DNA of 64,000 bases from Phycisphaerae bacterium. Lineage in GTDB: Bacteria > Planctomycetota > Phycisphaerae > UBA1845. The notes under the pieces were generated by a model that searched no databases, was not told where the DNA came from, and was given only the letters and a program-made list of their open reading frames with translations. Shown here piece after piece: positions 3,067-33,641 of this stretch. Made by a program: the position numbers and the translations under genes. Position 1 is the first letter of the stretch; each line of letters opens with the position of its first letter. The stretch lies in NCBI GenBank assembly GCA_029260115.1, contig JAJDDW010000114.1:18504-82503 (forward strand), in the 5' to 3' direction.

Positions 3067-4329
3067 TTAATTCAGGGTTAAAGCTTTGATGGTCTTGCAA
3101 TCTCTGAGGTATAGCTTTTGGCCAACCAAGGTGGGGACTGTCCAGGCTATGCGTTCAAGGACGCTGGCCTTGGCGTGGATGGTCACATCTTCGGGCGTGG
3201 CTGAGGCTAGGAGGAGCTGACCGTCCTCATCTAGTACGATTATCTTGTCACCGGCTAGGAGGAGCTGGGCCTTGCCGAATAAGCCTCGCTTCCGGAAGGC
3301 CATCTTCCCGGTTTTGACGTTGACGGCTGCGAAAAATGATGGGCCGTTGCCGCCGGTGGATGCGTAGATGTAATCGCCGATTCGAATGGCGCTGCCGAAA
3401 TGTATTTGCATTTTGCTATGATGCCAAAGTTCGTTGACGGTTGTTTTTCCGTCGGCCTGAGAGAGCTTTAATGCGCGACTTCCGGTGTTGTACGCGGAGG
3501 AGATGAAGAGGATGTTACCTGGGCACCAAAGGGGTAATGAAGCGTTGACGTTGTAGGAAGTTTTGTGCGGATGGTACCATAGTAGTTTCCCATTGGCTGG
3601 GTCCACAGCTACGATCTCATCGGTCATGGGAATGACGACTTGCTGCTGTTTGTCAACGTTGATGAGCAATGGTGAAGCGTATGAACATTTTACGTCCAGG
3701 CTCGACCAGGCTACTTCGCCGGTTTTTTGACGAAAGGCCATGACACCGTAGCCTTTGCCACCGACGGGAAGGATGATGGTGTCCTCAAAGGCGAGCGGGC
3801 TGGCGGAATAGCCCCACATTAATTTGTTGGCGTTATATTCTTTCGTCAAATCGTGTGACCACACAACGGCACCAGTGTTTAAGTTTAGGCAATACAGCTT
3901 TGCGGTGATGCCGACAGTGAAAACAAGATCGCCAACAATGAGTGGTGATGATCGCGGACCTACGCCGAAGCCTCTGTCTAACTCACTAAATAGCGGCGCG
4001 GGGTAAGTATGCTGCCATTTGGTTTCGCCTGTATCAGCGTCCAGCGCGACGACGATTTCATTTTCACCTTGGCGGTGCATGGTTAGTAGCATGTTTTGTG
4101 CGACGGAAATGGTGGAATAACCATCCCCAATAGGCTTAGACCAAAGCGTTTTAGGGCCTTCTTTGGGCCAGGTTTTTTTTAGTGAGGCGTCGGGGATGGT
4201 GAAATCTCGGTTGGGGCCTCCCCACTGCGACCATTGGGCACTGGCCAGCGACGAAGTTAGGCTCACGCAAAAGATTGTACATAGTAAAGTTTGATAGTGT
4301 CGGCTCGATGACATATGGTTATTTTCCAT
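3067..4329 (-). CDS. Secreted PQQ-binding-like beta-propeller repeat protein
   Basis: Signal peptide, N-terminal WSQWGGPNR motif, repeated ALDADTGETKW/CLNLNTGAVVW blades. Start placed at ATG 4329, one base after the upstream stop and behind a GGAGA. Confidence 0.85.
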   Translation of the reverse strand: MENNHMSSSRHYQTLLCTIFCVSLTSSLASAQWSQWGGPNRDFTIPDASLKKTWPKEGPKTLWSKPIGDGYSTISVAQNMLLTMHRQGENEIVVALDADTGETKWQHTYPAPLFSELDRGFGVGPRSSPLIVGDLVFTVGITAKLYCLNLNTGAVVWSHDLTKEYNANKLMWGYSASPLAFEDTIILPVGGKGYGVMAFRQKTGEVAWSSLDVKCSYASPLLINVDKQQQVVIPMTDEIVAVDPANGKLLWYHPHKTSYNVNASLPLWCPGNILFISSAYNTGSRALKLSQADGKTTVNELWHHSKMQIHFGSAIRIGDYIYASTGGNGPSFFAAVNVKTGKMAFRKRGLFGKAQLLLAGDKIIVLDEDGQLLLASATPEDVTIHAKASVLERIAWTVPTLVGQKLYLRDCKTIKALTLN

Positions 4330-4330
4330 C

Positions 4331-5545
4331 TTATTTTTTATCTCCAAAACAATAGAGTACGCCATCTTGTGTACCAATAATAAGGCAGCCTTCAGCTACG
4401 GCCGGTGAGGCCGAGATGGGTGCGCCGGCCTCAAATCGCCAAGTTTCTTTTCCTGTTTCGATATTTACGGCGTAGATGTTTCCGTCGTTCGATCCGACGA
4501 AGACGCGCTGGCCAACGATCACGGCGGAGGAATCTATTCTACCTTTGGTAGGAAATATCCATTTCATTTCCCCGGTGGCTAGGATGATCGCTCGGAGTCG
4601 TTTATCTCGACCGCCGACGATGGCAAGCTCTTCTGTGACAGCGGCGGAAGACATAAACGGGAATTGCTTGTCGGGGTCTTCAAATGTCCAGCGTCTGGCC
4701 CCGGTTTTCCAATCGACGCCGATGATTTGGTTGCCATAGGTTCCAAGGTACACATTTGAGCCGACGATGGCTGCGGAAGCGCCGGCGGGTGAGCCGATCG
4801 ATACCTCTCGAATTTTTTTTCCGCTACTGGCGTCCAGCACGTGCAAGTTTTCATCGCAGGCTACAGATAGCACGTGGTTGTCCACGATGCCAGAAGTGGC
4901 ATGAACTTTACTCTCGGTTTCAGCTTTCCAAGCTAGTGATCCATCTGCGACTTTTATGCAGTAAATGAAGCCGTCGTAAGAGCCTATGATGACAGTATCA
5001 CCGGCGACATTCGCAGATGAAATCACCTGGCCATTGGTGGCGTAGGTCCACAAGCCTTGCCCCGTTTGGACGTCCACGGCGTGAACGATGCCGCTGTCGT
5101 CGCCGAAGATGACCTTACCACTGACCACGGTGGGTGAGGATTGGATGAAATCTTTGGCGTGATAATTCCATTTCATTTTGCCGGTGTGCAAGTCTACTGC
5201 GTAGAGGTATTCATCGTCACAGCCGAAGTAAACGGTGCTATCGACAATGGCGGCGGACGAGGTAATGGCTTCTTTTCGCTTGAAGCGCCATCGCACGGCA
5301 AGCTTTTCTGGCAACTGGCTCACGGCGACGCCGGTTAGACGAGGGTTACCGCGGAACATTGGCCAGGACTGGGCGGTAGCGCGAGGCGCGACGGATGGCG
5401 ATTTTTCTACTTGGGCAAAAACTGTCGACGAGGTTATCGATATCAAAATTATGAGTGGGAGGTATACACGCCATGCGCTTCGCAGGTTCGCGTTGGCGAA
5501 TCCATTATTTGCTATGGCCGCATACTGTGTGTCGTATTTTCTCAC
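4331..5545 (-). CDS. Secreted PQQ-binding-like (BamB-like) beta-propeller repeat protein
   Basis: WPMFRGN motif and about 8 regular repeats of SSxAI...VYFGSxDxxLYAVDxxTGxxxW. Confidence 0.88.
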   Translation of the reverse strand: MRKYDTQYAAIANNGFANANLRSAWRVYLPLIILISITSSTVFAQVEKSPSVAPRATAQSWPMFRGNPRLTGVAVSQLPEKLAVRWRFKRKEAITSSAAIVDSTVYFGCDDEYLYAVDLHTGKMKWNYHAKDFIQSSPTVVSGKVIFGDDSGIVHAVDVQTGQGLWTYATNGQVISSANVAGDTVIIGSYDGFIYCIKVADGSLAWKAETESKVHATSGIVDNHVLSVACDENLHVLDASSGKKIREVSIGSPAGASAAIVGSNVYLGTYGNQIIGVDWKTGARRWTFEDPDKQFPFMSSAAVTEELAIVGGRDKRLRAIILATGEMKWIFPTKGRIDSSAVIVGQRVFVGSNDGNIYAVNIETGKETWRFEAGAPISASPAVAEGCLIIGTQDGVLYCFGDKK

Positions 5546-5563: not shown

Positions 5564-6019
5564 CTACGAAGGTTTGAATCTAAGAACCAGGGCTGCGCCC
5601 ACGCCAGCCAATGCGATGCCCGCGTAGAACATCATGTGCGGAGGCTTGGCTGGTTTATTCCAGATCATTGATACAATCGTATTCATGATCGGAGCGCCCG
5701 CAAAAACTAGCGGGGCGACATAAATTGGCTTACCGCCTTGCTTGAAAGCGAACACGATCCCCAAGGCTCCGATTGCGCCGAGTATACCTGCTAAGGTAGA
5801 CAGGTTGACGCCCTTGGATGTAAATTCCCACGGCTCTGATTTGGCGAACCAGATATATGCTACGCAGGCTAAGGACACAACAAAATATGCAACGCCTACG
5901 AATAGGAACGCGCGTAGTGCGCTGTTCTTGCCTATCGCAGTTTGGCCATGATGTAGCGTGGGCACATACGCGCCCCAACAGAGGATAGTCAGGATGACAA
6001 ACATTGGCCAAAGCTTCAT
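5564..6019 (-). CDS. Small integral membrane protein, possibly DMT/EamA-like
   Basis: About 5 hydrophobic segments, ILCWGAY start motif, GGAG RBS upstream. Confidence 0.7.
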   Translation of the reverse strand: MKLWPMFVILTILCWGAYVPTLHHGQTAIGKNSALRAFLFVGVAYFVVSLACVAYIWFAKSEPWEFTSKGVNLSTLAGILGAIGALGIVFAFKQGGKPIYVAPLVFAGAPIMNTIVSMIWNKPAKPPHMMFYAGIALAGVGAALVLRFKPS

Positions 6020-6182: not shown

Positions 6183-6602
6183 CTAGCCATTTATTTTGGC
6201 CTGCAATTTTTCTCTGATTTCATCTGGAATTATTATCGAGTGAAATTTTCCACCTTGGGTGGAACAACATACGGCCGACGATCGACCAGTGGCAATACAC
6301 ACGCCGTCTATTCGAAACTCGCACTTAAAAGAGACGGACTTGTCGGTGATTTCGGTCAAAGTGATGGCTAATTCCACATCATCTTCAAAACGAGCGGGAC
6401 GGGCGTATTCACAGCTAACGGACACGCGAGGCCAGCCAATATGCCCGTCACCGGCTGGGATATTTACGCTGATGCCCAACGATCGCCAGAAGCCGCATTC
6501 CACTTCTTCCATGTATCGAAAATAATTGGAAAAATGAACCACGCCGGCTAGGTCGGTATCGGCGAACTGAACTATTCTGGTCATTGTATAGTGATCGGAC
6601 AT
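6183..6602 (-). CDS. Acyl-CoA thioesterase, hotdog fold (4-hydroxybenzoyl-CoA thioesterase/YbgC family)
   Basis: VQFADTDLAGVVHFSNYFRYME signature and CEYARPARFED. Confidence 0.9.
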   Translation of the reverse strand: MSDHYTMTRIVQFADTDLAGVVHFSNYFRYMEEVECGFWRSLGISVNIPAGDGHIGWPRVSVSCEYARPARFEDDVELAITLTEITDKSVSFKCEFRIDGVCIATGRSSAVCCSTQGGKFHSIIIPDEIREKLQAKING

Positions 6603-6774: not shown

Positions 6775-8442
6775 TCACGCCTTGCCGAAGAACTTTTCTA
6801 CTGTGGCTGTCGACGGCGGTCTTGTGATTAGCGATACCACTACCAGCGACACTGTCGAGACCGAGATGATCGTAGCTACGGGCATCATGTCTAAAAATAG
6901 ATACTCACGGTTGGCGCCATAGCCTGCTTGGGCGAACAGATAAACCCAAGCGACGGCGGTACTAATGACACAGGCGTATGCGCCAGCCGTCGTCGTGCGT
7001 TTCCAATAAAGGGCGGCTGCGACTAGTGGGAACAAGCTGGCAAATCCGCTGAAGCACCATACGCCGAGGGTGAACACACCGCCAGGGCGTGTTTGAGCCA
7101 AGAGATACGTAACGATTACAATGAAAACGACGAAGCCGCGTCCTAGTAATAGGCGCTGTTTATCTGACAGTGAGCCATCTTTGGCGTAGTGAGCCACGAT
7201 GTCGTTAGTGAAAATGCTACCAAGACAAAGGAACTGCGAATCCAATGAAGACATAATCGCGGCGAGGATGCCTGCGGTCAGCAATCCACCTAGTACCGGA
7301 CCCGTGCTGGAATCGACAAGCTTGCCGAGGACCGCGTTGGGGTTAGAAAATCCGTAAGGAATAATGGGCTTGCCGTCTATCATGGCACTGGTAGCCCATA
7401 CGCCAATCAATACGCAGGGCACCCACACGAGCATGATGAGAATGGGATGCGCGATGACGGACAGTTTAAACGATTTCGCGCTTTTCGCGGTTAACCAATG
7501 TTGAAAAAGATGCGGAAACATGCCCACGCTTAGCGGAATAAACATATACGTGAGAAACTTCAGATGGCCAATGCCATGCGGCTTAACCGGCTTGTTCGGC
7601 GCAGTGCCACGCTGGGACTCTGGCTTATTTTTCCAAGCGGCGAATCTCTTTTCATAGACTTTCACGTCGCCTTTGTAGCGGGTGAGTTGGTCATTTTCTC
7701 GCACGGTGCGGCGCAGTTTGTCGGGATTATGCTTTTGCACCATAGCTGTCGCTTCTTTCACTCCGCCGAGCTTGTCGGAAATAGCTGCGAAAGTGACGAC
7801 GCCTAATATGATAAACACAATGGTCTGAAAAGCGTTGGCCCAGGCTGTGCCGCGCACGCCGCCAAAGAAAACGTAAATCATGACGACGATACAAATTAGC
7901 GCTGAGCCATAGGCGTATGGAATAGCGCCAGCAGCACGAGCGGCTGGGCCTACACCAGCCGCGGGAAAGATGTCAGGTAATGCGCCGCCGGTTAATTTTT
8001 CGATCGTCGTGCCAGCGCCCATGACTCCGATGAGAAGGTATGGAATCACAAGGCCTACGAGGATAGGAAAAAGCAATAATCCAAAGTTGTTAGACTCAAA
8101 CCGATCTCTGAAAAACTGAATTTGTGTTGTGTAGCCAAACCGTTTGCCGAATGACCATAACTTAATGCCTATAATGAAGAAACAAGCGGAATGAATGATG
8201 CCAGACCAAGAGGCCATCTTGCCGTATACGCCGATGCCATCTTTAAAAGTGGCGCCGGTCGAGCCGACGAGGGCGAAGGCAGTCATGGTCGTTCCGAACA
8301 ACGACATGAGCAGTAAAAATGGGCCGATGCTGCGGGATGCTAGGAAATAGTCTGCCGATGTTCCTTTGAACAATCGGCTACTGAAAACCCCGAGAATCAA
8401 GAGCAAGCCGAGATAAGCTAAGATAATGAGAAGTTGTGTCAT
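6775..8442 (-). CDS. Sodium:solute symporter family protein
   Basis: DYFLASRSIG, FFGGVRGTAWANAFQ and AAIMSSLDSQ motifs; about 13 TM segments. Confidence 0.93.
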   Translation of the reverse strand: MTQLLIILAYLGLLLILGVFSSRLFKGTSADYFLASRSIGPFLLLMSLFGTTMTAFALVGSTGATFKDGIGVYGKMASWSGIIHSACFFIIGIKLWSFGKRFGYTTQIQFFRDRFESNNFGLLLFPILVGLVIPYLLIGVMGAGTTIEKLTGGALPDIFPAAGVGPAARAAGAIPYAYGSALICIVVMIYVFFGGVRGTAWANAFQTIVFIILGVVTFAAISDKLGGVKEATAMVQKHNPDKLRRTVRENDQLTRYKGDVKVYEKRFAAWKNKPESQRGTAPNKPVKPHGIGHLKFLTYMFIPLSVGMFPHLFQHWLTAKSAKSFKLSVIAHPILIMLVWVPCVLIGVWATSAMIDGKPIIPYGFSNPNAVLGKLVDSSTGPVLGGLLTAGILAAIMSSLDSQFLCLGSIFTNDIVAHYAKDGSLSDKQRLLLGRGFVVFIVIVTYLLAQTRPGGVFTLGVWCFSGFASLFPLVAAALYWKRTTTAGAYACVISTAVAWVYLFAQAGYGANREYLFLDMMPVATIISVSTVSLVVVSLITRPPSTATVEKFFGKA

Positions 8443-8681
8443 GCTTTGCCTCCGTTTTTAGAAGCTCGTGCATTTACCGGTTGGACATCATCCAATTCGC
8501 TTGGCCAACAGTATACTACGGCTAGTGCCCACAAGATGCCGGAGGCGAGTGATATGCCCGCATGATAGGCTAGCCCGATGGGTACGAAACCGAATACTAA
8601 TGTTTCGGAATTATCCCACCACCACCAATCGTGATGAAGGAACGCGAGAAGAATGATTGAGCCGTATATGATTTTTTTCAT
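8439..8681 (-). CDS. Small 2-TM symporter-associated protein (DUF3311-like)
   Basis: MKKIIYG...HHDWWWWD...VFGFVPIGLAYH; ATGA overlaps with both neighbours. Confidence 0.8.
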   Translation of the reverse strand: MKKIIYGSIILLAFLHHDWWWWDNSETLVFGFVPIGLAYHAGISLASGILWALAVVYCWPSELDDVQPVNARASKNGGKA

Positions 8682-9940
8682 GTGGTTTCCGTACCCGTTT
8701 TCAAATCGCTCGGCTGGGGGAGCGTAATCCATTGTCGCATGGTGTCAAACATTTGCGCGACTTCATCGTTAAAGACGTCGCCAATCAGGATTCGCACCAA
8801 GTGGTCGCGGTGGTGTGGGAATTCCTTCATAAATTGGCCGAAACTAAAATCTCGATTATAAAAAGCTTCGACTAGTTGCCGGATCATGTTCATGCCGTGT
8901 AGCAATTCCGGCGCAAAGCAACCCAGCTTGTTCCCTGATAAATCCTTATCGCTTAACCCTTGATGAATGGCGTCGGCGGCTAATTCTCCGCTTTTTAGTG
9001 CCAGCATAATGCCAGACGAATAGACGGGATCCATAAAGCCAAAGGCGTCCCCGATGAGTACCCAACCGTCCCCGGCCATTTGATCGGCGCGGTAGGAAAA
9101 GTCTGTGGTAACGAAGCCTTTGGTGATACGCTCAGCTTTTTCAAGTCGACGCAAGATGCCTGGACACTTCGCGATTTCCTCGTCGAGCGTGACTAAGGGA
9201 TCGTTGCCGCGGCCAGTACAGAGATACGATGGCGGCGCGACTACGCCGATACTGGTGACGCCATTGCAAAGCGGGATATACCAGAACCAGCCATCCCTTT
9301 TTGGCATGTGGATGATGATCGTCGCCCCACTATTGCGCCCTTCATCGCGATACGCCCCTTTGTAATAGGCATAAATCGCCGCGTTTTTGAATTTTGGGTC
9401 AGGGCGGCGCAGTTTCAATTGCTTAGCTAGGATGGAACTCATGCCGGAGGCGTCTACAACTACCTTGGCGAAAGTATCTTCGGAACCGGCATCGGTCACG
9501 ACACGAACGCCAACTGCTTTGCCCCCTTCAAAGAGGACTTCTTTAACACGTACGCCTTCACGCACAATCACTCCCTGTGAAATGGCGTTGTCTAGCATCA
9601 TTCTATCGAATACATCTCGCTCTACCTGCCATGTTATCGAGCAGGGACTGTCATCGCGATCGGTAAAGTAGAATGGTTGAGAGTCCTTGCCGGACGTCGA
9701 GACGAATTGCACACTTTCCTTACGGGGGAAATTTGAAGCTTCCATCTTTTCGAGCATGCCCAATCTTTTGAAGGTCCAATACGTTTGCGGCATGAGCGAC
9801 TCGCCGATATGCGGTCGCGGAAACAATGACTGTTCAAGCACCATCACGTTTCGACCTTGCTGGGCTAAAATGGTCGCGGCTGTCGCACCGGCTGGTCCGC
9901 CGCCAATTATCGCACAATCGTAATCGGCTGTATGGCTCAT
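8678..9940 (-). CDS. FAD-dependent oxidoreductase, flavin-dependent halogenase-like
   Basis: GGGPAG, FPRPHIGESL, FPRK (candidate catalytic Lys), GWFWYIP (WxWxIP) and GDAFGFMDPVYSSG (FxxPxxSxG). Confidence 0.82.
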   Translation of the reverse strand: MSHTADYDCAIIGGGPAGATAATILAQQGRNVMVLEQSLFPRPHIGESLMPQTYWTFKRLGMLEKMEASNFPRKESVQFVSTSGKDSQPFYFTDRDDSPCSITWQVERDVFDRMMLDNAISQGVIVREGVRVKEVLFEGGKAVGVRVVTDAGSEDTFAKVVVDASGMSSILAKQLKLRRPDPKFKNAAIYAYYKGAYRDEGRNSGATIIIHMPKRDGWFWYIPLCNGVTSIGVVAPPSYLCTGRGNDPLVTLDEEIAKCPGILRRLEKAERITKGFVTTDFSYRADQMAGDGWVLIGDAFGFMDPVYSSGIMLALKSGELAADAIHQGLSDKDLSGNKLGCFAPELLHGMNMIRQLVEAFYNRDFSFGQFMKEFPHHRDHLVRILIGDVFNDEVAQMFDTMRQWITLPQPSDLKTGTETT

Positions 9941-10551
9941 GGTTGATCGTCACCTTTATCCGAGAGGCTAATATTATGATCTTGGCTAACATTGAGTACG
10001 ACTTCAAATAGTTCGATGGCGGGCTGATGATGGCAATAGATAATGCCAATGCGGCCAAAGCTTTCCTGGGTGACGACAGGCTCAGTGCTTTTCCAAATAG
10101 CCGCTTCTGGCGAGAGCTGTAGCAGCCAACATGGTTCTATGCGACGAAGCACGTTGTGACTAATCAGAATATCACCCAACGGGCGTTGCTTGGCAAGTAT
10201 CTCCTCGCGCACTTCCGTTGACAGCGCATCAAGGTCTAGACGAACGATACCGTATTCAACAATGGTGTTTGAACTTGGCAAGGTCAACACAATCTCTCTG
10301 GTATAGCAATGCTCATCAAGATGGTATCGCAATACGCGCAGCGCGACAGATTCGCCGTGGTAATTTTGGAGCGTGGTGGTCATGTGGTTTTGATGCGTGA
10401 GTAGCTCGCGCACTGTGCGGGGTAATGACTTGTCGTCAACCGGTTGAATACCGTCAAGGCACATCGGCTGATCGAAGAAAGGCTTCGCGAGAAGAGACAA
10501 GGCCGACAGCGCGTTGTCGCAACTGGTGATGTGGTCAGGCCGGGAGATCAC
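9937..10551 (-). CDS. Chorismate pyruvate-lyase-like protein (UbiC/Rv2949c/UTRA fold)
   Basis: LLTHQNHMTTTLQ, YTREIVL and RPLGDILI match the LL...sxT.xL / REvxL / PLGxxL pattern of chorismate lyases; translationally coupled on both sides. Confidence 0.6.
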   Translation of the reverse strand: MISRPDHITSCDNALSALSLLAKPFFDQPMCLDGIQPVDDKSLPRTVRELLTHQNHMTTTLQNYHGESVALRVLRYHLDEHCYTREIVLTLPSSNTIVEYGIVRLDLDALSTEVREEILAKQRPLGDILISHNVLRRIEPCWLLQLSPEAAIWKSTEPVVTQESFGRIGIIYCHHQPAIELFEVVLNVSQDHNISLSDKGDDQP

Positions 10552-11861
10552 GCTAAGTTGTCACCTTGAAATTGTGGTTCAAAAAAAGCAGGCAACAGCC
10601 CATCCACCCGAAGCAAACCTTGGCGAGACAGATGTAGCTGCTGGCCGGTGACCGTTGCGAAACCTTTGTCGATTAGCGAGTTAACGACGTCTGCATAAAC
10701 ATCCAATACGTCAACATCGAATTTAGCCTGAAAATAAGGGGCGTCGATGCGGCCTAATTTAAGTTGTAATACAAGCTCACGAATCAAAGCTTGGCGCGGT
10801 GTCATTTGCATCGCGCGAGATAGTGGCAGTTCACCGGCTTGTAGCTTGCCGATATAGTCTTCCCATTTGTCGGCGTTTTGATAATGCACACCTTGGAAGT
10901 GAGAAAAGGAGGCTACGCCCATGCCAATCATATCGGCGCCGTGCCATATGGAATCGCGATAAACAAAGCCCGAACCAACCGACGGCTTGACTAGCGTATA
11001 GCCACTGGACACCACATATCCGGCCGCTTCAAAAGCTCGAAAAGCGTAGTCCGTCCAGGCACGCTTGGTGGGCCAATCTGCCACCGGTGAAGCAGTGCCT
11101 GATTGCGTCATTTCATGAGAGATCGTTGTGTTGCGGGGCAGCTCCATTTGATAAATGGTGACGCTGTCCGGGTCGAGTGCGACAGCTTTGCTGACCGTAT
11201 CCTCCCAAGTCTTCGTGGTATCGCCCACCATGCCAGCGATGAGGTCGATGTTAATTTGATCAAATCCAACTTCGCGCGCCCAATCGTAAGCGCGGATAAT
11301 CTCTGGGGATTTATGCGCCCGGCCATTAAGCTCTAACACGTGGTCGTCGAAATGTTCGACGCCTAAACTTAAACGTGTCACGCCGATGGCTTTGATGGTT
11401 TCAAGCTTGCTTTTTTTCAGCGTGCCCGGTTCACATTCAAAAGTTACTTCTTTCGCTTTTTCCCAGTTCCAATATTTTGCGATACGATCGACAAGACGCT
11501 GTAACTGGGCCTCGCTCAAGAACGAGGGAGTTCCGCCGCCAAAGTATACGAATTCAAAGTGACGATCTTTTAGCCCTGCCCGGTCGGCGTACAGGGCGAC
11601 CTCTTGACCAAGGGCGTCGAGATACGTTTCGACTTCGTTGGAATTCTTGTCGGTGTAAACGCGGAAGTAACAAAATTTGCATCGTTTTCTACAAAACGGA
11701 ATATGAATATACAACCCGACGGGCGAGGTATCGGTTAAGGGTTTATCCATAAAGTCATTGGCCTTGGAAATATGCTTAGCCGACCACTCTGAGAACGGTG
11801 GATAGTTAGCGACGAAATAGGTGCCGACTTCAGTTTTATCGTTAAGAATTTCCAAATCCAC
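10548..11861 (-). CDS. HemN-like (class C-type) radical SAM protein
   Basis: LYIHIPFCRKRCKFCYF (CxxxCxxC), YFGGGTPS, RLSLGVE, INIDLIAG. Confidence 0.9.
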   Translation of the reverse strand: MDLEILNDKTEVGTYFVANYPPFSEWSAKHISKANDFMDKPLTDTSPVGLYIHIPFCRKRCKFCYFRVYTDKNSNEVETYLDALGQEVALYADRAGLKDRHFEFVYFGGGTPSFLSEAQLQRLVDRIAKYWNWEKAKEVTFECEPGTLKKSKLETIKAIGVTRLSLGVEHFDDHVLELNGRAHKSPEIIRAYDWAREVGFDQINIDLIAGMVGDTTKTWEDTVSKAVALDPDSVTIYQMELPRNTTISHEMTQSGTASPVADWPTKRAWTDYAFRAFEAAGYVVSSGYTLVKPSVGSGFVYRDSIWHGADMIGMGVASFSHFQGVHYQNADKWEDYIGKLQAGELPLSRAMQMTPRQALIRELVLQLKLGRIDAPYFQAKFDVDVLDVYADVVNSLIDKGFATVTGQQLHLSRQGLLRVDGLLPAFFEPQFQGDNLA

Positions 11862-12059: not shown

Positions 12060-13214
12060 TCAGGCGAAGGCCGATGCGTAGATTTCTAGAAGCTCCTCTT
12101 CGCCTACGGGTCGAGGATTAAAGCCTGCAGTCCACTGTTTACCAGCTAGGGCAGCTAAAGCGGGTAGACGGCTGCGATTAACACCGCAATCGTTTAAACG
12201 TGTCGGCAGGCCGCTGTTTGCTAGAAATTTTGATAACTGCTGAGCAAGCAATTCTGGATCATCTACGAGATCTGCGTAGACATTATTTCCTTTAGCACAA
12301 TTATAACGCACCACATGCGGCAGTAACAAACCCACCGCTTGGCCATGGACGATACCACATTGCGATGTCAATGGATTGGCACACGCATGGGCGGCACCTA
12401 ACATGGACTGCTCTATAGCTGCCCCCGCGAGGTGCGCACCTAGCAACATATTCGCCCGCGCTCGATCATCGCCTGGCGATACAATTACAGTTCCATAAGA
12501 CGAGGATAATAACAGCCAAGCCTGTTTAGACAATTCTCGTGACACGTCGTTGCGGCGCGTCGTGCCTGCGGTCTCGACCGCGTGGGCTATGGCATCTATT
12601 CCAGCGGCAGCAGCCACTGCGGCCGGTTGGCTGCTGGTGAGTTGAGGATCGAGAATGGTAAGTCTGGGGCGAAGTCCACCCTCCTTAGGCAAACGACGAT
12701 CTCCGCATACCATCTTTTGTTTAGAATCTACGTCACTAATCAGGGCGAACGATTGGGCTTCGCTACCCGTACCAGCCGTCGTGGGAACAAGTATCGTTGG
12801 CAGCAATGCGTCGGTCGCTTTACCCTCCCCCCAATAATCCGCTATCGTTCGTCCGCCCGTAAGAATCAGGTTGATTCCTTTGGCGCAGTCCATCGCGCTA
12901 CCACCACCCAAACCCACGATGAAGTCTATCGGATGCTGCCGCGCTAATGTCACACCGGCTGCGACGTTATCCGTGGTGGGATTTTCGTGCGTGCCATCGA
13001 AGAGAAAAACATCTACGCCGGCGTCCCGTAAAGATTGTCTTGCCCGATCAGCGTAGCCTGCACGGACTATGCCGGGGTCGGTCACCAATAAGGCACATGT
13101 CGCTCCCTCTTCTCGTGCGCATTGACCTAAATCATCCAGCAATCCATGGCCAAATAGGACGCGCACCGGTGAGTGGGTGAGGATAGCTGGCAGCGTGAAC
13201 GGATCGGAGGTCAT
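12060..13214 (-). CDS. Iron-containing alcohol dehydrogenase
   Basis: GLGGGSAMDCAK, PTTAGTGSE, DAIAHAVE, AHAC and VHG metal-ligand motifs. Start set to ATG 13214 (ATGA overlap with the upstream gene). Confidence 0.92.
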   Translation of the reverse strand: MTSDPFTLPAILTHSPVRVLFGHGLLDDLGQCAREEGATCALLVTDPGIVRAGYADRARQSLRDAGVDVFLFDGTHENPTTDNVAAGVTLARQHPIDFIVGLGGGSAMDCAKGINLILTGGRTIADYWGEGKATDALLPTILVPTTAGTGSEAQSFALISDVDSKQKMVCGDRRLPKEGGLRPRLTILDPQLTSSQPAAVAAAAGIDAIAHAVETAGTTRRNDVSRELSKQAWLLLSSSYGTVIVSPGDDRARANMLLGAHLAGAAIEQSMLGAAHACANPLTSQCGIVHGQAVGLLLPHVVRYNCAKGNNVYADLVDDPELLAQQLSKFLANSGLPTRLNDCGVNRSRLPALAALAGKQWTAGFNPRPVGEEELLEIYASAFA

Positions 13215-14632
13215 GCGGCTGACTCGACTTGGAAAGCCCGCTGACGATAAAGATGCTCGAACAGGTTGCCCTCGTGGGGCTGGTCCCAACTTAGCTGATA
13301 AGTAGGGATCGCGCCGATATTCAATCGATCTATATGAGAACAAGCCATCAAAGTTTTCTTGAATGACTCGTCATGTGTGATGGCTGTGGCAACAAGCGTT
13401 GGGCCTATTGCAGTAGGCATTTGATCGATCGGACACTCAACGACGGAGGCGAACGGAAACAAAAATTCCCGGTTGGAAAGTGGATGATCTCGATCGTCAC
13501 AGTGAATAATCGTCGGTAACAAATAAGCACACTTTCCCAGGTGCGCGAGTCGATCCTGTCCTCGTTGCTTTTGGGTTAGGTCTGTCGCGCCGTCAATGTT
13601 CAAATCGTTATCGATCATGGCAGAAATTTGCGTGGCGACATTTGCATTAGCAAACGCTGCAATCTGAGCGTCTGCATGGTCCGAAGGTAACGCTTGTATA
13701 GCTGAAAGTTTTTTCGCCAGCGCTTCTGCGATCTCTCGCCCATGCCTTGGCGTCCAAACACCGGAAGCATTGATGCAAGATCGGCCTCCATTGGCCGCGA
13801 TGGAGGCCGCGATCATGTCGATATGCTTTTCCCAATCGTCAACCTCATCCTCGCCGAACAATATTTTGCTAAAGCCAGGCCCATGCACTTCGACACGCGG
13901 ATCGTCTTTATACGGCTCGGTCGTAGCGGAACCTCCGAAGAGCATGGAACGATCTACCTGACGAAGTAATTCACTTGCACCAGCATGATCTGTCGGATAA
14001 AAACCGAAAGCTTCCTTGGGGACGCCGGCTTCGATAAACGCTTGAATCATACGGTATGGCGTCCAAGGTTCCTCGCGACCGGGCTTGAGCATGATCGGCG
14101 CTTTGAGTGCGATCGCCGGTGCCCATAATGAATGTACACCGGGCGAGTTGCTTGGCAACACGGCGCCGAATACACGGCCATCTCTGAAGAAACTGAGCGT
14201 GCCACCAGCGCTAGTTCCATGACCAATATCTAGAATGGATAGATCAAAGCCCCGCGTCAGACCGCGAATAACAGTTTCAATATTGCTTAAGATGTTGTAA
14301 ATCTTCGAGGCGTTGTGGCGGCAATATGTGATCGGCATGCCCGTCGTGGCGGAGAGCTGTTTCACATAATCATCGAACGATTGCTTCGAATCGCCAAGCG
14401 GCAGTGAGGCTGTCATGAATAATTCTGCGGCGTGGCGAGACATTTCCATAAGCTCAGCCACGCTAAATCCTTCAAGCACATCGTCGGCTAAGAGACTTTT
14501 GTCGCGACCGATGACGCCGCTGTTTACTTGGCTAACCGAAGCGACTGGCTCTCCGGTGGCATGATGAAGAATATCTACTTTTGTCATGCTCTCGTAAGGT
14601 TGACCGAGTCGCAGTGCGGGGATGTGTAACAT
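13211..14632 (-). CDS. Aldehyde dehydrogenase-superfamily protein, GriD/EhpG-like acyl reductase component
   Basis: VLPSNSPG, LKPG, GGRSCINAS (catalytic Cys), EFLFP. The ELGG motif is replaced by VHGPGFSK. TAATG-coupled to the adenylating enzyme gene. Confidence 0.8.
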   Translation of the reverse strand: MLHIPALRLGQPYESMTKVDILHHATGEPVASVSQVNSGVIGRDKSLLADDVLEGFSVAELMEMSRHAAELFMTASLPLGDSKQSFDDYVKQLSATTGMPITYCRHNASKIYNILSNIETVIRGLTRGFDLSILDIGHGTSAGGTLSFFRDGRVFGAVLPSNSPGVHSLWAPAIALKAPIMLKPGREEPWTPYRMIQAFIEAGVPKEAFGFYPTDHAGASELLRQVDRSMLFGGSATTEPYKDDPRVEVHGPGFSKILFGEDEVDDWEKHIDMIAASIAANGGRSCINASGVWTPRHGREIAEALAKKLSAIQALPSDHADAQIAAFANANVATQISAMIDNDLNIDGATDLTQKQRGQDRLAHLGKCAYLLPTIIHCDDRDHPLSNREFLFPFASVVECPIDQMPTAIGPTLVATAITHDESFKKTLMACSHIDRLNIGAIPTYQLSWDQPHEGNLFEHLYRQRAFQVESAA

Positions 14633-15738
14633 TAATAAACCCCTTCAACAATCGGCGTAGCGAAGCCCGAGAACGGACGTACATCACCAATACCATCCCA
14701 CGCGTAGGCCTCGCATGGCGCATGTCGAATACCTTCGTCGCGTTCTAAAAATCGCGGCATGAAAAATTCTTTGGTTAAAGTCGTAAGACGAGCACGCCCG
14801 GTCTCACCATAATCAACCACGCGGTCGGTTTGATCGGGGTCGACAACCTCAATCATCGCACGCGGCGACGGGGGATAATAGATAACACTATAATTATCAG
14901 CAGGCTCGTACGGCTTATGGCAAGCGAGACCCATCAACGTGTTGCCATATGTCGGGACGAATTCGATCGATCCTTCCAGCAATTCCTCGCGGGCGAAGCG
15001 GTGGAACTGAGCGGTTAATTGCGTACCTCCACAGAATACGCCTTTGATACCCAACTTCTTGAGTGACACCCGCTCGCACAAAGCTTCGAGTAATTTTGGC
15101 GTCGTGAATATGCACTGAATGTTTTTATGCGCGCGGAGCAAAGTCAGCCCTTGGTTGATGGCGTGGTCCTTGTATTCGTGCATTTCTGCCATGCGACCAG
15201 ACTTAATCAGCTTAGTCACCCACCTAGGGTCCAGATCAATGCTAAAGCAAATGCCACCACGAAATTGACACAGATGCTCTACCGCGAGGCGCAACCGGCG
15301 CGGGCCACTAGGACCGAGCATGAGCCAGTCTGCGCCTTTGGGAAAAGCTTCATCGGAAAGCGTACGGCTAAACAGTTCGTAATCGATCTTGAAATCTTCG
15401 ATGTTGATCCGCGCTTTGGGACGCCCCGTACTCCCGCCGGTTTCAAAAACGTAAATCGGCTGGCCGGCACAACCCTTGGGAACCCACCGTCTAATGTCGC
15501 CTTCGCGCAGCCATTCGTCACGAAAATTATCAAACTTCTTCAGATCGTCGTAGACCTGGATTTCTTTTCGCGGATCCCAGCTCAGATTAGCAGCGTAATC
15601 CAGCCAGAATGGGCATCCGGTATCTGGATCAAAGTGCCAGGAGACTGTCTCTCTGGTATGCTCATCCAGGCGTTCTCGCACCTGCTCGATGCGCTGATCC
15701 AAAGATAGTCCTGATGATGTCGTGGAAGATGGTGTCAC
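14632..15738 (-). CDS. Short ANL-superfamily adenylating enzyme, GriC/EhpF-like
   Basis: FETGGSTGRPK P-loop, WHFDPDTGCPFW N-terminus, YGNTLMG, FLERD; only 368 aa, with no full C-terminal subdomain. Confidence 0.75.
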   Translation of the reverse strand: MTPSSTTSSGLSLDQRIEQVRERLDEHTRETVSWHFDPDTGCPFWLDYAANLSWDPRKEIQVYDDLKKFDNFRDEWLREGDIRRWVPKGCAGQPIYVFETGGSTGRPKARINIEDFKIDYELFSRTLSDEAFPKGADWLMLGPSGPRRLRLAVEHLCQFRGGICFSIDLDPRWVTKLIKSGRMAEMHEYKDHAINQGLTLLRAHKNIQCIFTTPKLLEALCERVSLKKLGIKGVFCGGTQLTAQFHRFAREELLEGSIEFVPTYGNTLMGLACHKPYEPADNYSVIYYPPSPRAMIEVVDPDQTDRVVDYGETGRARLTTLTKEFFMPRFLERDEGIRHAPCEAYAWDGIGDVRPFSGFATPIVEGVY

Positions 15739-15828: not shown

Positions 15829-17355
15829 CTATTTCGATTTCTCGATCGCATACAACGTATTACGATTACTGATATAAAGTACACCATTGGCCACGACAGG
15901 CGTGGTGTACACGGAATTACCTGTATCGTTAACGCCTATTTTTTTCATTTCCTTACCATGTTCCATTACGACAACTTCGCCATCTTCGGTTCCCAGGAAC
16001 ACCTTACCATCTACCACAAATGCTGACCCCCAGATAGCTGACATGGTATCGTATTTCCAATACTGCTTTCCGGTCTTTTCGTCGAAGCAATATAGAAAGC
16101 CGCTAAGATCAGCGTTGTATACCAGGCCATCCGCCACGGTGGCGGAGGACATGGTGCGATGAAAATCGTCGCCTCCGATATGCCACACGAGACCGGTCTG
16201 GGTAATGTCGCCACGTTTGGTGGCATCGATGCTGAAAAAGTGCCCTGGACCTTCACCGTGCTCAGGGTCTTGCCCCACAGCTAAGAGAACTTTGTTATCT
16301 TGGATAACAGGCGTAGCGATGATATTATTTTTCGTGCCACGACCGCCTAGAATCCATTTCGAATCTGCAGGATTCAGATTAAACTTCCAGAGCAATTTGC
16401 CGGTCTTAGCTTCGTAGGAATAACACCATCCATCACCGCCAGAGAAAATTGCCTGGGCGGTCCCATCGATAACGCCATAGGCCGGGGACGACCATTGGCC
16501 ATGCAATACTTTGTCAGCTGGGTGCCCCGCTTCCCACACGATTTTTCCAGTGCGCTTATCTACAGCTAGAAAATCCGGGGCGTCTGGCACGGGCATGTTA
16601 AGGTGTCCTTCGTCCACGCCGTTTGAGGTAGATACGAATATGAGATCACCAGCGCCGACGGGCGAACTTGTCGCTAGGTTATGCGGGAACACTTCTAGAT
16701 CGTCGAACATATCCAAAACCCAGACAATGTCGCCGTCTTGCTTGTCTTTATATTTTTCTTCCTTGAAAGGTCCATCGTTTTCATCATCGAGGAAGCCATT
16801 CAAATCGGCGCACACTAACTCGCAGCGATTACTCACGTAGTATATTCGATCCCCTTCCACCCAAGGTGCAGAACAAATGCCTTGCTCAGGCCAATCGTTC
16901 ACCCTACCGGTCGGCAATTTGTCATGCGTCATCTGCCAGAGAAATTTTCCGGTCTTTTCTTCTACGCAAAGAAGCACACCTTTATCGCCTTTAATGTTCG
17001 GACGAAGGTTACCGTTGTTGTTGGTGCCCACCAATACTTTACCTTGCGCGATAACGGGATTGCCGTAGGTCTGGGAACCAAGCTTAGACTTCCACTTGAT
17101 GTTTAGGCCTGACTTAATATCCCACTTACCTGGAATCCCAGTTTCACCCGAAACCATATTACGATCCGGCGTGCCTCCCCACATGGTCCAATCGCCACGA
17201 TGGGCCTTGGAAAGAGGTTCAGCGTGGGTTGATGTGGCTAGAAGAGATGTGAACAGTATCGCAAGTACCTTAGCGCCAGCGCCGCGCGGGTTGAACCCCG
17301 CGGCTCGATTTTCATGTTGTTTCTTTGTTTGCATTTCGCAATATTTCCTAATCAT
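15829..17355 (-). CDS. Secreted PQQ-binding-like beta-propeller repeat protein
   Basis: Signal peptide, WTMWGGTPDRN, repeated xDxxTGKxxW blades, acidic loop DLNGFLDDENDG. The start may be ATG 17334. Confidence 0.87.
   Translation of the reverse strand: MIRKYCEMQTKKQHENRAAGFNPRGAGAKVLAILFTSLLATSTHAEPLSKAHRGDWTMWGGTPDRNMVSGETGIPGKWDIKSGLNIKWKSKLGSQTYGNPVIAQGKVLVGTNNNGNLRPNIKGDKGVLLCVEEKTGKFLWQMTHDKLPTGRVNDWPEQGICSAPWVEGDRIYYVSNRCELVCADLNGFLDDENDGPFKEEKYKDKQDGDIVWVLDMFDDLEVFPHNLATSSPVGAGDLIFVSTSNGVDEGHLNMPVPDAPDFLAVDKRTGKIVWEAGHPADKVLHGQWSSPAYGVIDGTAQAIFSGGDGWCYSYEAKTGKLLWKFNLNPADSKWILGGRGTKNNIIATPVIQDNKVLLAVGQDPEHGEGPGHFFSIDATKRGDITQTGLVWHIGGDDFHRTMSSATVADGLVYNADLSGFLYCFDEKTGKQYWKYDTMSAIWGSAFVVDGKVFLGTEDGEVVVMEHGKEMKKIGVNDTGNSVYTTPVVANGVLYISNRNTLYAIEKSK
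17282..17307 (+). repeat. REP-like palindrome, copy 4, inside the 5' coding region of the beta-propeller gene
   Basis: CCGCGCGGGTTGAACCCCGCGGCTCG; reads RAAGFNPRG in the protein frame. Confidence 0.7.
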
Positions 17356-19726: not shown

Positions 19727-21031
19727 TTACCCGGAACGGTTTGTATGAACAAGTCGCTTGGCCTTCATATCGAACCGTGGCAATGTATCAGCCTTGACCG
19801 AAGCGACGTCGGGGCGAAATAACAGTTTATCCCGCACCTTATTGGCGATTCGATCTTCCAACCCGGCTACCATAGCCGAACTTATAGTCTCTATCTCAAT
19901 ACATAAATTGCAAATGCCGCCACTATGGTCAGCTATCAAGCGAAATTCCGCGACTTCGGAAAACTGACGAATGATAGCCTCGATCGCAGAAGGGAACACG
20001 TTATTGCCGCGAATAAAAAGCATATCATCAATACGCCCCTGAATCCCGCCTTCTAACCTAGCGAAACACCGGCCACAATCACATTGATCGCGTGTGAGAA
20101 CGACCAAATCGCCCGTTCGATATCGAATGACGGGGCTGGTGGATCTGCCCAACGTGGTCAATACTAATTCACCGGGCTGACCGTCAGCGACAGCCGTTTG
20201 CGTATCCGCATCGACGACCTCCGCGATAAATTCAGTTTCGATAACATGAACACCGCCCGGCGATTCGACACACTCAAAGCCCCACGCACCAGCTTCAGTC
20301 ATACCCGCGTGATCGAAAATCCTTGCCCCCCAGCCAGTCTCGATGCGCTGCCGAACGGCTGGAATGCTGCCGCCCGGCTCGCCGCCAACAATAATCATGC
20401 GCACAGCCGACGATGATAAATCGATCGACTCCTCAGAGGCGACATCTACCATGCGCATCGCGTAAGTCGGCGTGCAGCAAATGACCGTCGCGCGATTGTC
20501 TAAAATGTATTGCAAACGAGCCTTGGTTGTCATGCCGCCGGCAGCTAATACCCTATTGCCTAACATCTGCGCCGCATCGAAGGCCATCCAAAAACCTATG
20601 AATGGCCCAAACGAAAATGGAAACACAACGACATCGTCGTCTCGAAGACCTGCCGCCCTAAATACGATACTCCAGCACGTCTTGCACCAGGACCACGATT
20701 CCTCGCTATCAAGCCAGCGCAAAGGCTGCCCGCTTTTCGTACCAGACGTCTGATGTAATCGAACGCAATCACTCAACGCACACGAATGATTCGTACCATA
20801 AGGAGGATGAGCATCAATATCTGCCTGAATCTCCGATCGGGTCGTAAATGGCAAATGACTATACGAGTCTGAAAGCGGATCAAACGAAATGCCGCCGAGC
20901 TTGTGTTGATAAAATGGATTGTTCGCCCGCACGACATCCAGCAGCGCAGCTAGCTTGCGTCTTTGAAGTTGTTCGATCGAATCTCGATCCAACGTCTCTT
21001 GTTCAGCGCAATAATAAGGCATACGCGTCAA
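19727..21031 (-). CDS. Phenylacetate--CoA ligase family (PaaK-like) protein
   Basis: LHQTSGT, HAGMTE, RYRTGDL, GRIDDMLFIRGNNVFPS, LPRFDMKAKR. Confidence 0.9.
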   Translation of the reverse strand: MTRMPYYCAEQETLDRDSIEQLQRRKLAALLDVVRANNPFYQHKLGGISFDPLSDSYSHLPFTTRSEIQADIDAHPPYGTNHSCALSDCVRLHQTSGTKSGQPLRWLDSEESWSWCKTCWSIVFRAAGLRDDDVVVFPFSFGPFIGFWMAFDAAQMLGNRVLAAGGMTTKARLQYILDNRATVICCTPTYAMRMVDVASEESIDLSSSAVRMIIVGGEPGGSIPAVRQRIETGWGARIFDHAGMTEAGAWGFECVESPGGVHVIETEFIAEVVDADTQTAVADGQPGELVLTTLGRSTSPVIRYRTGDLVVLTRDQCDCGRCFARLEGGIQGRIDDMLFIRGNNVFPSAIEAIIRQFSEVAEFRLIADHSGGICNLCIEIETISSAMVAGLEDRIANKVRDKLLFRPDVASVKADTLPRFDMKAKRLVHTNRSG

Positions 21032-21265
21032 CTCTCAGCAACATCGGCGAACTAGGCAACACCCGCAATGGTCGGCAATCTGTCCACCACTTACGAACAA
21101 TTATCCATCTTCCCATTATCAGGCTATTATGGCAACGACCAACGAGTGTCTCATTGTGTAATTTTTCCTCACTACGCAGTAAGTTAACGAGACTCACAAC
21201 CAATGTGACATTCGTGATACTTGTTTACTAGCTGCTTTCCGGCATGTCTGGTTATGATGTCACAC

Positions 21266-33262: not shown

Positions 33263-33641
33263 TCACGCCCCATACAGGAGAATCCGGCCTTCGCCTATTA
33301 TATTCCCATAGCAAATCTTAGACGACTAAAAACTTCAAATCGCTCTGACAGGTGTAAAAATCAAGTATAAATCGAGGAGAGTAGCGAAATTGTAGACCAC
33401 GCAGTCGTCAGAAAATCCCCCTATTCCCCTCGCAGTACATCAGGCGAGGGAGGTCTGGCGCATAGCGAAATATTCGGATAATCCACATATTTTTTATTTT
33501 TCTCTTGACAATAGGGAGGGGGGGCGATAACAGGGATACATGGGTGTGAGGTGGTAGCTTATTCTGGTTGCTGCCGAACACGTTCCTATCTATCTGTTGA
33601 AGGGAATTTTGGGGCAAATCTATTTACTGGGGAGTTATGTT

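Follow-up and report, generated by a model that had tools for sequence, protein, structure and literature searches.

In the bmp pathway of marine Pseudoalteromonas, the chorismate lyase Bmp6 is combined with the brominase-decarboxylase Bmp5, the pyrrolyl-carrier halogenase Bmp2 and the P450 Bmp7. The ambigol pathway follows the same logic of a lyase plus a halogenase; both pathways have carrier proteins and P450s, and neither is known to have a radical S-adenosylmethionine (SAM) enzyme as a partner. Flavin halogenases are usually scattered, lineage-specific tailoring enzymes. Here we describe a gene cluster from a Phycisphaerae bacterium (assembly GCA_029260115.1), found in a stretch of 64,000 nucleotides of contig JAJDDW010000114.1 (positions 18,504 to 82,503; this whole stretch is called the window below). 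In this cluster, a gene for a chorismate-lyase-like protein and a gene for a flavin-dependent halogenase are joined to a gene for a HemN-like radical SAM enzyme.

Among the planctomycetes, a similar pair of genes has been reported from strain 10988 (Planctomycetales). There, the chorismate-lyase-like gene baaA adjoins baaB, the best halogenase homologue of that genome, and both have been proposed to make 3,5-dibromo-p-anisic acid; the proposal is based on their adjacency and on Phyre2 models, and the accessible part of the preprint reports neither a mutant nor an assay (bioRxiv 10.1101/723874). The accessible part of a 2025 review still gives the baa pathway as postulated (PMC12078418). A second planctomycete compound, alichondrichlorin from Alienimonas chondri, is described in the accessible text as having a p-hydroxybenzoate on C-25 of a long chain that bears a 2-chloro-3-hydroxy-carboxylate (PMC11848864; PMC12078418).

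Like the baa locus, the window has adjacent lyase-like and flavin-halogenase-like genes in a planctomycete host, and a dihalogenated 4-hydroxybenzoate has been proposed as the product in the former. On the other hand, the accessible part of that work, with which we compare by description only, mentions neither a radical SAM gene nor a wider cluster, whereas the halogenase of the window has a HemN-like enzyme as its constant partner. The preliminary description of our locus, made from the sequence alone, had pointed to the planctomycete dibrominated anisic acid as a precedent. A precedent does exist in the form of baaA and baaB, as a proposal that comes without a genetic or enzymatic test. In the literature that we searched we found no published description of a cluster that unites these radical SAM, lyase-like and halogenase genes. 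What is new here is that the logic of lyase plus halogenase is extended by an obligate HemN-like partner and by a conserved cluster for reduction, glycosylation and transport.

The coupled core genes

The three core genes lie on the reverse strand. The gene of the HemN-like radical SAM enzyme (10548-11861, 437 aa, GTG start) is followed by that of the chorismate-lyase/DUF98-fold protein (9937-10551, 204 aa, the probable source of 4-hydroxybenzoate) and by that of the flavin-dependent halogenase (8678-9940, 420 aa) of the short PltA/Bmp2/CndH type. The preliminary description had these genes overlap by 4 nt each, and both junctions can be read in the sequence: the stop codon of the radical SAM gene and the start codon of the 204-aa gene share GTGA, and the stop codon of the latter and the start codon of the flavoprotein gene share ATGA. 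The same ATGA overlap is found between the halogenase stop and the start of a DUF3311 gene, provided that the latter begins at Met18, and again between the DUF3311 stop and the start of a sodium:solute symporter gene. Because the ATGA coupling runs on into DUF3311 and the symporter, the earlier term "trio" is too narrow; judging from the junctions, the radical SAM, lyase-like, halogenase, DUF3311 and symporter genes form a chain of five coupled genes. The sequencing runs listed for this DNA are three DNA runs of one biofilm-metagenome study, with none of RNA. If the longest open reading frames (ORFs) are used, the starts of DUF3311 (8732) and of an upstream Fe-alcohol dehydrogenase (Fe-ADH) gene (13343) give overlaps of 55 and 133 nt, respectively. 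The true starts are probably Met18 (8681) and Met44 (13214), each of which gives an ATGA overlap with the preceding gene.

The three genes had also been described as a unit behind a putative promoter of their own. The element in question, TTGAGT-N16-TATACT (11999-11972, reverse strand), is indeed present. It lies roughly 110 nt ahead of the GTG start, in the 198-nt stretch that separates the radical SAM gene from the Fe-ADH gene; it agrees with the consensus at 9 of 12 positions and is the sole listed match inside this gap. However, a scan of 18.6 kb gave 27 promoter-like sites compared to 19.2 +/- 4.5 in shuffled sequences, and as the frequency of matches is not above chance, the element is no evidence for a promoter. 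We therefore do not see the three genes as an autonomous unit with its own demonstrable promoter; they appear instead to form the enzymatic core of a larger conserved cluster for biosynthesis and export, which has about 18 genes, covers approximately positions 3067 to 26714 of the window and is described below.

For the flavoprotein, a chemistry other than halogenation had been considered as well. By its match scores in the PDB, the protein groups with halogenases of the PltA/Bmp2 type and not with reductases. The best match is 8zop (3.6e-67), with PltA at 1.9e-59 and Bmp2 at 1.9e-54. Scores between 134 and 230 bits were obtained for 8zop, PltA, ChlB4, Mpy16, CndH, Bmp2, 3nix, CmlS and RadH, and the ten best PDB rows are all halogenases save 3nix, which was deposited as a flavoprotein/dehydrogenase. 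The geranylgeranyl-type reductase 3oz2 is far weaker (52 bits, 3.5e-13). In Pfam the protein matches Trp_halogenase (6e-30) and in NCBIfam CmlS (4.2e-60, under the cut-off); in the PDB search, pyrrole and phenol halogenases score above CmlS. The GxGxxG motif (G13/G15/G18), K74, W218-x-W220-x-I222-P223 and G297-D298 show no variation in any of the 37 halogenase sequences, and K74 lines up with the Lys of "nfpkKfg" in the alignment with PltA. The catalytic Lys and the WxWxIP motif are thus retained, and the flavoprotein passes as a putative halogenase.

The protein resembles the short "variant B" halogenases (PltA, Mpy16, Bmp2, CndH, ChlB4 and CmlS) in these motifs and also in its length of about 420 aa, and like them it lacks the large C-terminal domain with which the tryptophan halogenases bind their substrate. 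It differs from them in that no cognate carrier protein gene is found nearby and in that it is a single-copy orthologue conserved over many genera rather than a sporadic gene. The closest solved halogenases work on carrier-bound substrates. The analogy to bmp, which had been drawn before, is a loose one: the locus does share the combination of a chorismate lyase with flavin-dependent halogenation, but the flavoprotein resembles the carrier-dependent PltA/Bmp2-type enzymes, and Bmp2 is the pyrrole enzyme of that pathway. Furthermore, neither a carrier nor a P450 coupling gene was found among the ORFs scanned (positions 1-41892 of the window, as for all gene searches of this kind below), and the locus carries radical SAM, EhpF/G-like, GT4, propeller and transporter genes beyond those of bmp.

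The 204-aa protein matches neither Pfam (PF04345 and PF01947 included, even at E <= 10) nor NCBIfam, and only chance-level matches were found when the protein and its profile were searched against PDB sequences. We therefore turn to its structure model, which has a pLDDT of 92.4 when built with an alignment of 27 sequences and of 32 when built from the single sequence. The top Foldseek matches of the model are the DUF98 protein AF1396 (2.4e-7) and the E. coli chorismate lyase UbiC (7.9e-6). Using VIA-align, we obtained a Z of 14.9 for AF1396 (2nwi; rmsd 2.5, 144 aligned residues) and of 12.0 for UbiC (1fw9; rmsd 3.1, 142 aligned), whereas the effector domains of GntR proteins score lower (Z <= 10.8). 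As far as the model can tell, the protein has the chorismate-lyase/DUF98 (UbiC/UTRA-type) fold, and the fold suspected in the preliminary description is borne out.

Are the residues that matter in UbiC present as well? We take the product-binding residues of UbiC to be Met34, Arg76, Leu114 and Glu155 in the numbering of the literature. A weak hhalign match between the 204-aa family and E. coli UbiC (probability 31.5%, E 5e-4) pairs HMT, YxREI and PLG with SMT, LREI and PLG of UbiC. In this alignment, M57, R85 and L125 correspond to M34, R76 and L114, and they are conserved in 40, 40 and 39 of 40 sequences. The alignment stops short of Glu155; E183, in the last strand of the 204-aa protein, is invariant. 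In total, H53, H56, M57, T58, R85, G126, R136, R167 and E183 are the same in all 40 lyase-like sequences. The protein thus shares with UbiC and with the DUF98/Rv2949c-like lyases the fold and the equivalents of three ligand residues. It differs from both families in that it lies under their Pfam thresholds and is extended at its N-terminus by about 40 residues, and from UbiC in its invariant HxxHMT, where UbiC has EDSMT, and in the lack of a ubiA partner. In its neighbour clusters in the Atlas, just 15-19% of the members carry PF04345 or PF01947. A search of the rest of the genome, which is 93.9% complete, gave neither a canonical Chor_lyase gene nor an Rv2949c-like one. It is probable, based on the model, that the 204-aa protein would yield 4-hydroxybenzoate from chorismate.

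The radical SAM protein matches Radical_SAM (8.3e-24) and HemN_C in Pfam. Its homologues are publicly named "oxygen-independent coproporphyrinogen III oxidase", and its closest solved relative is E. coli HemN (1olt, 1.6e-37). Both would fit an ordinary heme enzyme, HemN or HemW, that happens to lie next to the other two genes; all the same, we regard this as extremely improbable. Compared with the NCBIfam models hemN, STM4012, HemZ, HutW and HemW, the protein scores 175-191 bits, in every case under the cut-off; for example, it reaches 191 bits for TIGR00538 hemN (cut-off 325) and 175 bits for TIGR00539 HemW (cut-off 205). All 44 sequences share C57/C61/C64 (CxxxCxxC) and GGGTP, but the extended CxxxCxxCxC is absent: at the position of the fourth Cys of HemN, 43 of the 44 have Phe66, a replacement also seen in HemW. 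In addition, true HemN and HemW proteins are encoded elsewhere in the genome (469 and 301 bits, respectively; the HemN gene lies beside one similar to hemA), and the gene of the window co-occurs genome-wide with the halogenase. Since the protein is below the cut-offs of HemN and HemW and true representatives of both are present elsewhere, we read the gene as a third, specialised paralogue that is distinct from the two.

With HemN, HemW and the class C enzymes, the protein has in common the radical SAM core with HemN_C, the GGGTP motif and Tyr51/His53 ahead of the cluster. It differs from them in being about equidistant from the five models, in having an N-terminal motif of its own (invariant T10, G13, Y15, F16, N19-Y20-P21-P22, S24 and W26) and in its link to a halogenase in the genomes. 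The HemN-like set, with the class C radical SAM methyltransferases, includes NocN, ChuW/HutW and MenK/MqnK. NocN resembles our protein in the core alone (8.5e-28, residues 48-257). At the level of architecture and context, a HemN-like core with HemN_C in a non-heme biosynthetic setting, as seen here, fits a class C radical SAM methyltransferase. Apparent fusions of the radical SAM protein in four genomes (G033, G069, G074 and G242) were rejected, as the long open frames are GC-rich read-through.

Distribution across the phylum

Each of the three core proteins was searched against the same sample of 301 genomes from the phylum, and the resulting tables were cross-read by eye. An orthologue of the radical SAM protein was found in 57 of them (E <= 1e-138, 48-62% identity); the few second matches, with 38-42% identity, are paralogues. 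Halogenase matches at E <= 1e-60 occur in 77 genomes. At E <= 1e-80, however, the halogenase is present in 56 of the 57 genomes that have the radical SAM orthologue and in no others. The exception (G067) is an 87% complete genome with a halogenase match of only 1e-65. In the 20 other halogenase-positive genomes the matches are weaker (1e-60 to 1e-73; 32-39% identity where checked), and there is no radical SAM orthologue. The lyase-like gene was found in 43 of the 301 genomes, and all 43 are among the 57 that carry the radical SAM gene. Five of the remaining 14 carriers were searched again with a profile of the family, and again no lyase-like match was found.

Related genomes are not independent, so that these counts should be read with care; the pattern nevertheless spans many families. 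Each of the 15 genomes of one family (f9) has the three core genes, yet in three of them (G043, G156 and G270), as well as in a genome of another family (G190, f85), the genes lie hundreds of kb to Mb apart. That family f9 retains the genes despite their dispersal argues for a shared function and not for mere neighbourhood. In other families the radical SAM orthologue is patchy (5 of 15 genomes in f18, 2 of 5 in f17 and 1 of 3 in f2). A search with the symporter at E <= 1e-100 gave 9 of the 301 genomes, mostly with half-length matches, and was too strict to inform on co-occurrence. These data indicate that the tightest partnership is that of the radical SAM enzyme with the halogenase, and that the lyase-like gene, although often present as a third member, is dispensable.

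This has consequences for a simple explanation, in which nothing but the lyase-like protein and the halogenase is needed for a 3-halo- or 3,5-dihalo-4-hydroxybenzoate, possibly methylated to an anisic acid, and the neighbouring genes are unrelated. Such a minimal pathway would agree with the 204-aa fold and the halogenase signature, and it is what was proposed for baaA and baaB and 3,5-dibromo-p-anisic acid in strain 10988 (bioRxiv 10.1101/723874). Yet that proposal itself comes without a genetic or enzymatic test, and in the accessible text no O-methyltransferase is found in that locus. More to the point, in our data the halogenase is tied more closely to the radical SAM gene (56 of 57) than to the lyase-like gene (43 of 57), and both the coupling and the synteny reach far past two genes. 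We consider the minimal pathway unlikely.

To describe the synteny, we collected 39 loci from species-representative genomes, using as a bait the lyase-like protein in an alignment of seven rows; the proteins of these loci are 36-92% identical. Beside the lyase-like gene, the radical SAM gene is found in 30, the halogenase gene in 27 and the symporter gene in 21 of the 39 loci. According to their record labels, 37 of the loci belong to the Planctomycetota or to a taxon within, one to the Alphaproteobacteria and one to an "uncultured bacterium". The whole gene order is seen, at 40-92% identity, in six loci (L031, L032, L041, L043, L044 and L046). Two others (L090 and L094) are compact versions with the propeller, radical SAM, lyase-like, halogenase, GT4, thioesterase and EamA-like genes. 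Homologues of GT4 and of the ABC system are found within the cluster in L083, L086, L056 and L082, homologues of these divergent genes also in L090 and L094, and the GT4 family is seen in 7 of the 39 loci. Among the Atlas feature neighbours of the EamA-like and 204-aa proteins there are some with Verrucomicrobiota and Acidobacteriota labels.

Several single loci deserve a description of their own. The complete order of the cluster, with proteins 42-74% identical to those of planctomycetes, is found in the metagenome-derived genome labelled as Alphaproteobacteria (L038, JANQQE010000005.1); this probably reflects a mistake in binning or labelling and not gene transfer. In genome G012, the lyase-like and halogenase sequences lie in-frame within a single open frame of 715 codons, with no stop in between (L090:1934-4078, reverse strand). 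This could be a natural fusion of lyase and halogenase, seen in one genome; its sister genome G178 has separate frames. In G190, the symporter orthologue follows the lyase-like gene, while the radical SAM gene lies apart from the halogenase gene and is preceded by a propeller gene (L080:6736-9582, reverse strand). After this radical SAM gene, there are genes for a 152-aa protein similar to the glycine-cleavage H protein, which has a lipoyl-carrier fold, and for a protein with a 4Fe-4S ferredoxin domain. It is possible that these two serve as carrier and electron donor.

The wider cluster and a possible product

Fifteen genes, from position 21031 down to 3067, are all oriented in the same direction (reverse strand) with short gaps between them. 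In this order they encode a PaaK-like ligase, two propellers, an EhpF-like enzyme with its aldehyde-dehydrogenase partner, the Fe-ADH, the five coupled proteins, a 4HBT thioesterase, an EamA-like protein and two further propellers. Both the ligase and the thioesterase had been noticed before as possible evidence for a CoA-tethered substrate, and both are confirmed.

The ligase (19727-21031, 434 aa) is a PaaK-family aryl-acid CoA ligase with the Pfam domains AMP-binding and AMP-binding_C_2; its NCBIfam matches to PaaK (1.9e-69) and FlxY (2e-45) are both under the cut-off. Downstream of it there are two PQQ-repeat beta-propellers (15829-19585, 508 and 745 aa), assigned by Pfam and NCBIfam and predicted to be secreted by their signal-like N-termini; the pair is conserved in L031, L032, L041, L044, L046 and L083. 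The EhpF-like adenylating enzyme (14632-15738) matches EhpF in the PDB (3hgu, 7.3e-44 over residues 28-368), and its gene overlaps by 1 nt with that of the EhpG-like partner of the aldehyde dehydrogenase family (13211-14632; Aldedh 1.6e-14). The latter shares the ATGA overlap with the Fe-ADH gene (12060-13343; Fe-ADH 1.5e-45), if this begins at Met44, its likely start. In related loci, too, the radical SAM gene has this block of EhpF/EhpG-like and Fe-ADH genes upstream of it.

EhpF and EhpG act in the reduction of a carboxylate to an aldehyde. As in the D-alanylgriseoluteic acid phenazine pathway of Pantoea agglomerans, to which they belong, a C-terminally truncated ANL enzyme is followed in the window by a protein of the aldehyde dehydrogenase family, and the adjacency of ehpF and ehpG is listed in a phenazine cluster table. 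The window differs in that it has no phenazine genes; here, the pair is followed by the Fe-ADH and lies within the cluster of halogenase and radical SAM genes.

On the other side of the core genes, the small DUF3311 membrane protein (8439-8681, its ORF opening at 8732; Pfam DUF3311 3.9e-6, below the cut-off) is the probable subunit of the symporter (6775-8442, 555 aa), and the two genes are adjacent in related loci. The symporter matches SSF in Pfam (5.3e-40) and the sss superfamily in NCBIfam, with no equivalog. Next come the acyl-CoA thioesterase of the 4HBT/YbgC type (6183-6602, 139 aa; 4HBT_2 1.6e-12, 4HBT 5.6e-9), whose gene is conserved in the cluster, compact versions included, and a small membrane protein (5564-6019, 151 aa) that belongs to no Pfam family and is a putative exporter of half the size of EamA/DMT proteins. 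The Atlas feature matches of 0.98 to clusters of "putative EamA domain-containing protein" are a lead only; the gene is conserved in the cluster. The last two genes of the run encode BamB/PQQ-repeat beta-propellers (3067-5545, 404 and 436 aa; Pfam PQQ_2 and Beta-prop_ACSF4) with hydrophobic, signal-like segments at the N-terminus, which suggest secretion. They reach 165 and 59 bits for NCBIfam BamB, below the cut-off, and the 404-aa type was found by clustering in 18 loci. Finally, divergent from the ligase gene, there are genes on the forward strand for a GT4 glycosyltransferase (21221-22594, by Pfam) and, by Pfam and NCBIfam, for a LolD/MacB-like and also DevA-like ABC ATPase (22634-23308) and an FtsX-type permease (23319-26714).

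As the preliminary description had said, there is no flavin reductase or carrier protein gene at the locus, and this holds among the ORFs scanned. Three Flavin_Reduct genes are found elsewhere in the genome, outside the locus. A P450 gene was not found among the ORFs scanned either, and the cluster has, in the same scan, no genes for a fatty-acid or polyketide synthase, an acyltransferase or a prenyltransferase.

Taken together, our preferred reading, which we hold tentatively and with slightly less than even confidence, is that the cluster makes a tailored derivative of a halogenated 4-hydroxybenzoate that is reduced, glycosylated and exported. The UbiC/DUF98-fold protein would cleave chorismate to 4-hydroxybenzoate, as suggested by its fold and ligand residues. 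The PaaK-like ligase may then form the CoA thioester, which would stand in for the missing carrier protein, and the halogenase, with FADH2 from a reductase encoded elsewhere, would chlorinate or brominate the ring ortho to the hydroxyl. While the signature of the halogenase is seen in the sequence, this substrate is the presumed one. The HemN-like enzyme may alter the same scaffold, most likely by a C-methylation of the class C type. Afterwards, the 4HBT thioesterase could hydrolyse the thioester and free the acid, and the EhpF/EhpG-like pair and the Fe-ADH, going by homology, would reduce the carboxylate to the aldehyde and the alcohol. In the last steps, GT4 would glycosylate the product, and the EamA-like and MacB-like systems would export it towards the four predicted secreted beta-propellers. 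The DUF3311/SSF symporter would import a precursor, the product or a halide.

A number of observations weigh against this pathway. Of the 57 carriers of the radical SAM and halogenase genes, 14 gave no match to the lyase-like gene, and two loci (L083 and L085) carry a contiguous cluster that is otherwise intact but lacks this gene; the supply of 4-hydroxybenzoate by the lyase-like protein is, for these two reasons, not obligatory. The 204-aa protein itself lies under the thresholds of Pfam and NCBIfam, the alignment does not place an equivalent of Glu155, and the invariant HxxH of the family is without counterpart in UbiC. No carrier protein gene is present although the halogenase resembles the carrier-dependent types, and class C methylation is just one among several chemistries of HemN-like enzymes. 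In seven loci, the lyase-like gene stands next to a polyprenyl synthase/DUF116 gene, which hints at a prenylated or lipid-linked product for which the proposed pathway does not account. Finally, one family keeps the genes in all 15 of its sampled genomes; this is uncommon for a specialised metabolite and could mean that another, physiological molecule is made. The halogenated 4-hydroxybenzoate modified by a radical SAM enzyme, as the preliminary description had it, is still the best reading, and neither the fold of the 204-aa protein nor the grouping of the flavoprotein speaks against it; with the lyase-like gene in 43 of 57 carriers, however, 4-hydroxybenzoate from chorismate should not be assumed to be the starting point everywhere.

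The isoprenoid genes are an observation in their own right. A fusion of polyprenyl synthetase and DUF116 directly precedes the lyase-like gene in L051, L053, L057, L058, L061, L066 and L082 (4271-8620 in the latter), and in five of these seven loci a gene similar to squalene-hopene cyclases (SHC) lies ahead of the fusion; the labels are Pirellula, Gemmataceae and Pirellulaceae. LytB is found near the lyase-like gene in L040 and L052. The polyprenyl and SHC-like neighbours are a possible isoprenoid link for the aromatic product.

One could take this further and assume that the aromatic ring is only the head group of a conjugate with a lipid or an isoprenoid, such as a prenylated phenol or, like alichondrichlorin, a chlorinated long-chain hydroxy acid esterified with 4-hydroxybenzoate. 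In that case an enolisable acyl thioester would be the substrate of the halogenase, a fatty acyl chain that of the EhpF/G-like pair and the alcohol dehydrogenase, and a glycolipid would leave through the MacB-type pump. The accessible text on alichondrichlorin shows that conjugates of p-hydroxybenzoate with a chlorinated long chain exist in a planctomycete; GT4, the LolD/MacB/DevA-like ABC system and the YbgC-type thioesterase of the cluster, together with the isoprenoid genes of the seven loci and LytB in the two others, would suit such a product. Still, the synthases and transferases that we looked for in the cluster, as well as a carrier protein, were not found. The substrate known for EhpF is an aromatic dicarboxylate, and the halogenase is closer to pyrrole and phenol halogenases than to CmlS. 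We think that a conjugate of this kind is distinctly unlikely.

Alternatively, the cluster might make a conserved physiological molecule for the secreted propellers, such as a periplasmic ligand, a cofactor or a quinone-like compound, with the halogenase working as such or cryptically. The propeller genes are constant even in the most compact versions of the cluster, both an importer and exporters are encoded, and in f9 the three core genes are kept in all 15 genomes although dispersed. The homologues of the radical SAM protein are also abundant in metagenomes, where 8000 of 8000 scored candidates pass E <= 1e-60. On the other hand, the patchiness in f18, f17 and f2 is rather that of an accessory trait. 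The propellers are BamB-like and below all cut-offs, no quinoprotein family is reached, and their role in binding a ligand is putative. In our view, such a molecule is very unlikely. A role in methanopterin or menaquinone synthesis was considered and dropped: MqnA/MqnD of the futalosine route are in the genome, and no more than 57 of the 301 genomes carry the module.

Neighbouring genes and biological meaning

Beyond the cluster, the window contains a run of genes of the kynurenine pathway on the forward strand (33597-39860): a 3-hydroxyanthranilate dioxygenase (34474-35139), an ACMSD-type amidohydrolase (35179-36201), a kynureninase (36210-37526), a KMO-like FAD monooxygenase (37712-39049) and a tryptophan 2,3-dioxygenase (39078-39860). 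As predicted from these assignments, the run points to aerobic tryptophan degradation or to de novo synthesis of NAD. On the reverse strand (30200-33262), a metallopeptidase of the thermolysin family (M4) with 1020 aa and a dockerin-like and MAM-like C-terminal region is encoded beside a MORN-repeat protein.

What does the cluster mean for the planctomycetes? One orthologue of the halogenase and the HemN-like branch are retained in about one fifth of the sampled planctomycete genomes. It is conceivable, if improbable, that the radical SAM enzyme and the halogenase are an obligate, phylum-wide module of two enzymes, kept in 56 of 57 genomes even where the genes lie apart, which together with an optional chorismate lyase, a glycosyltransferase and import and export systems of its own makes a halogenated phenolic glycoside with a conserved physiological role, for example as a ligand or cofactor of the propellers. 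The symporter coupled to the halogenase may in that case serve to concentrate halide; it belongs to the SLC5 family, which includes the sodium/iodide symporter of animals. If this were true, it would mean a halogenated metabolite of a primary type and a new chemistry for HemN-like enzymes. The five translationally coupled genes can be co-expressed and are a direct experimental handle. The identity of the product would assign a function to a large family of orphan enzymes, the HemN-like branch, and it would test the sole published biosynthetic proposal for a planctomycete halometabolite. It could also uncover a widespread halogenated compound that bears on the interactions between bacteria and their hosts in biofilms and on algal surfaces.

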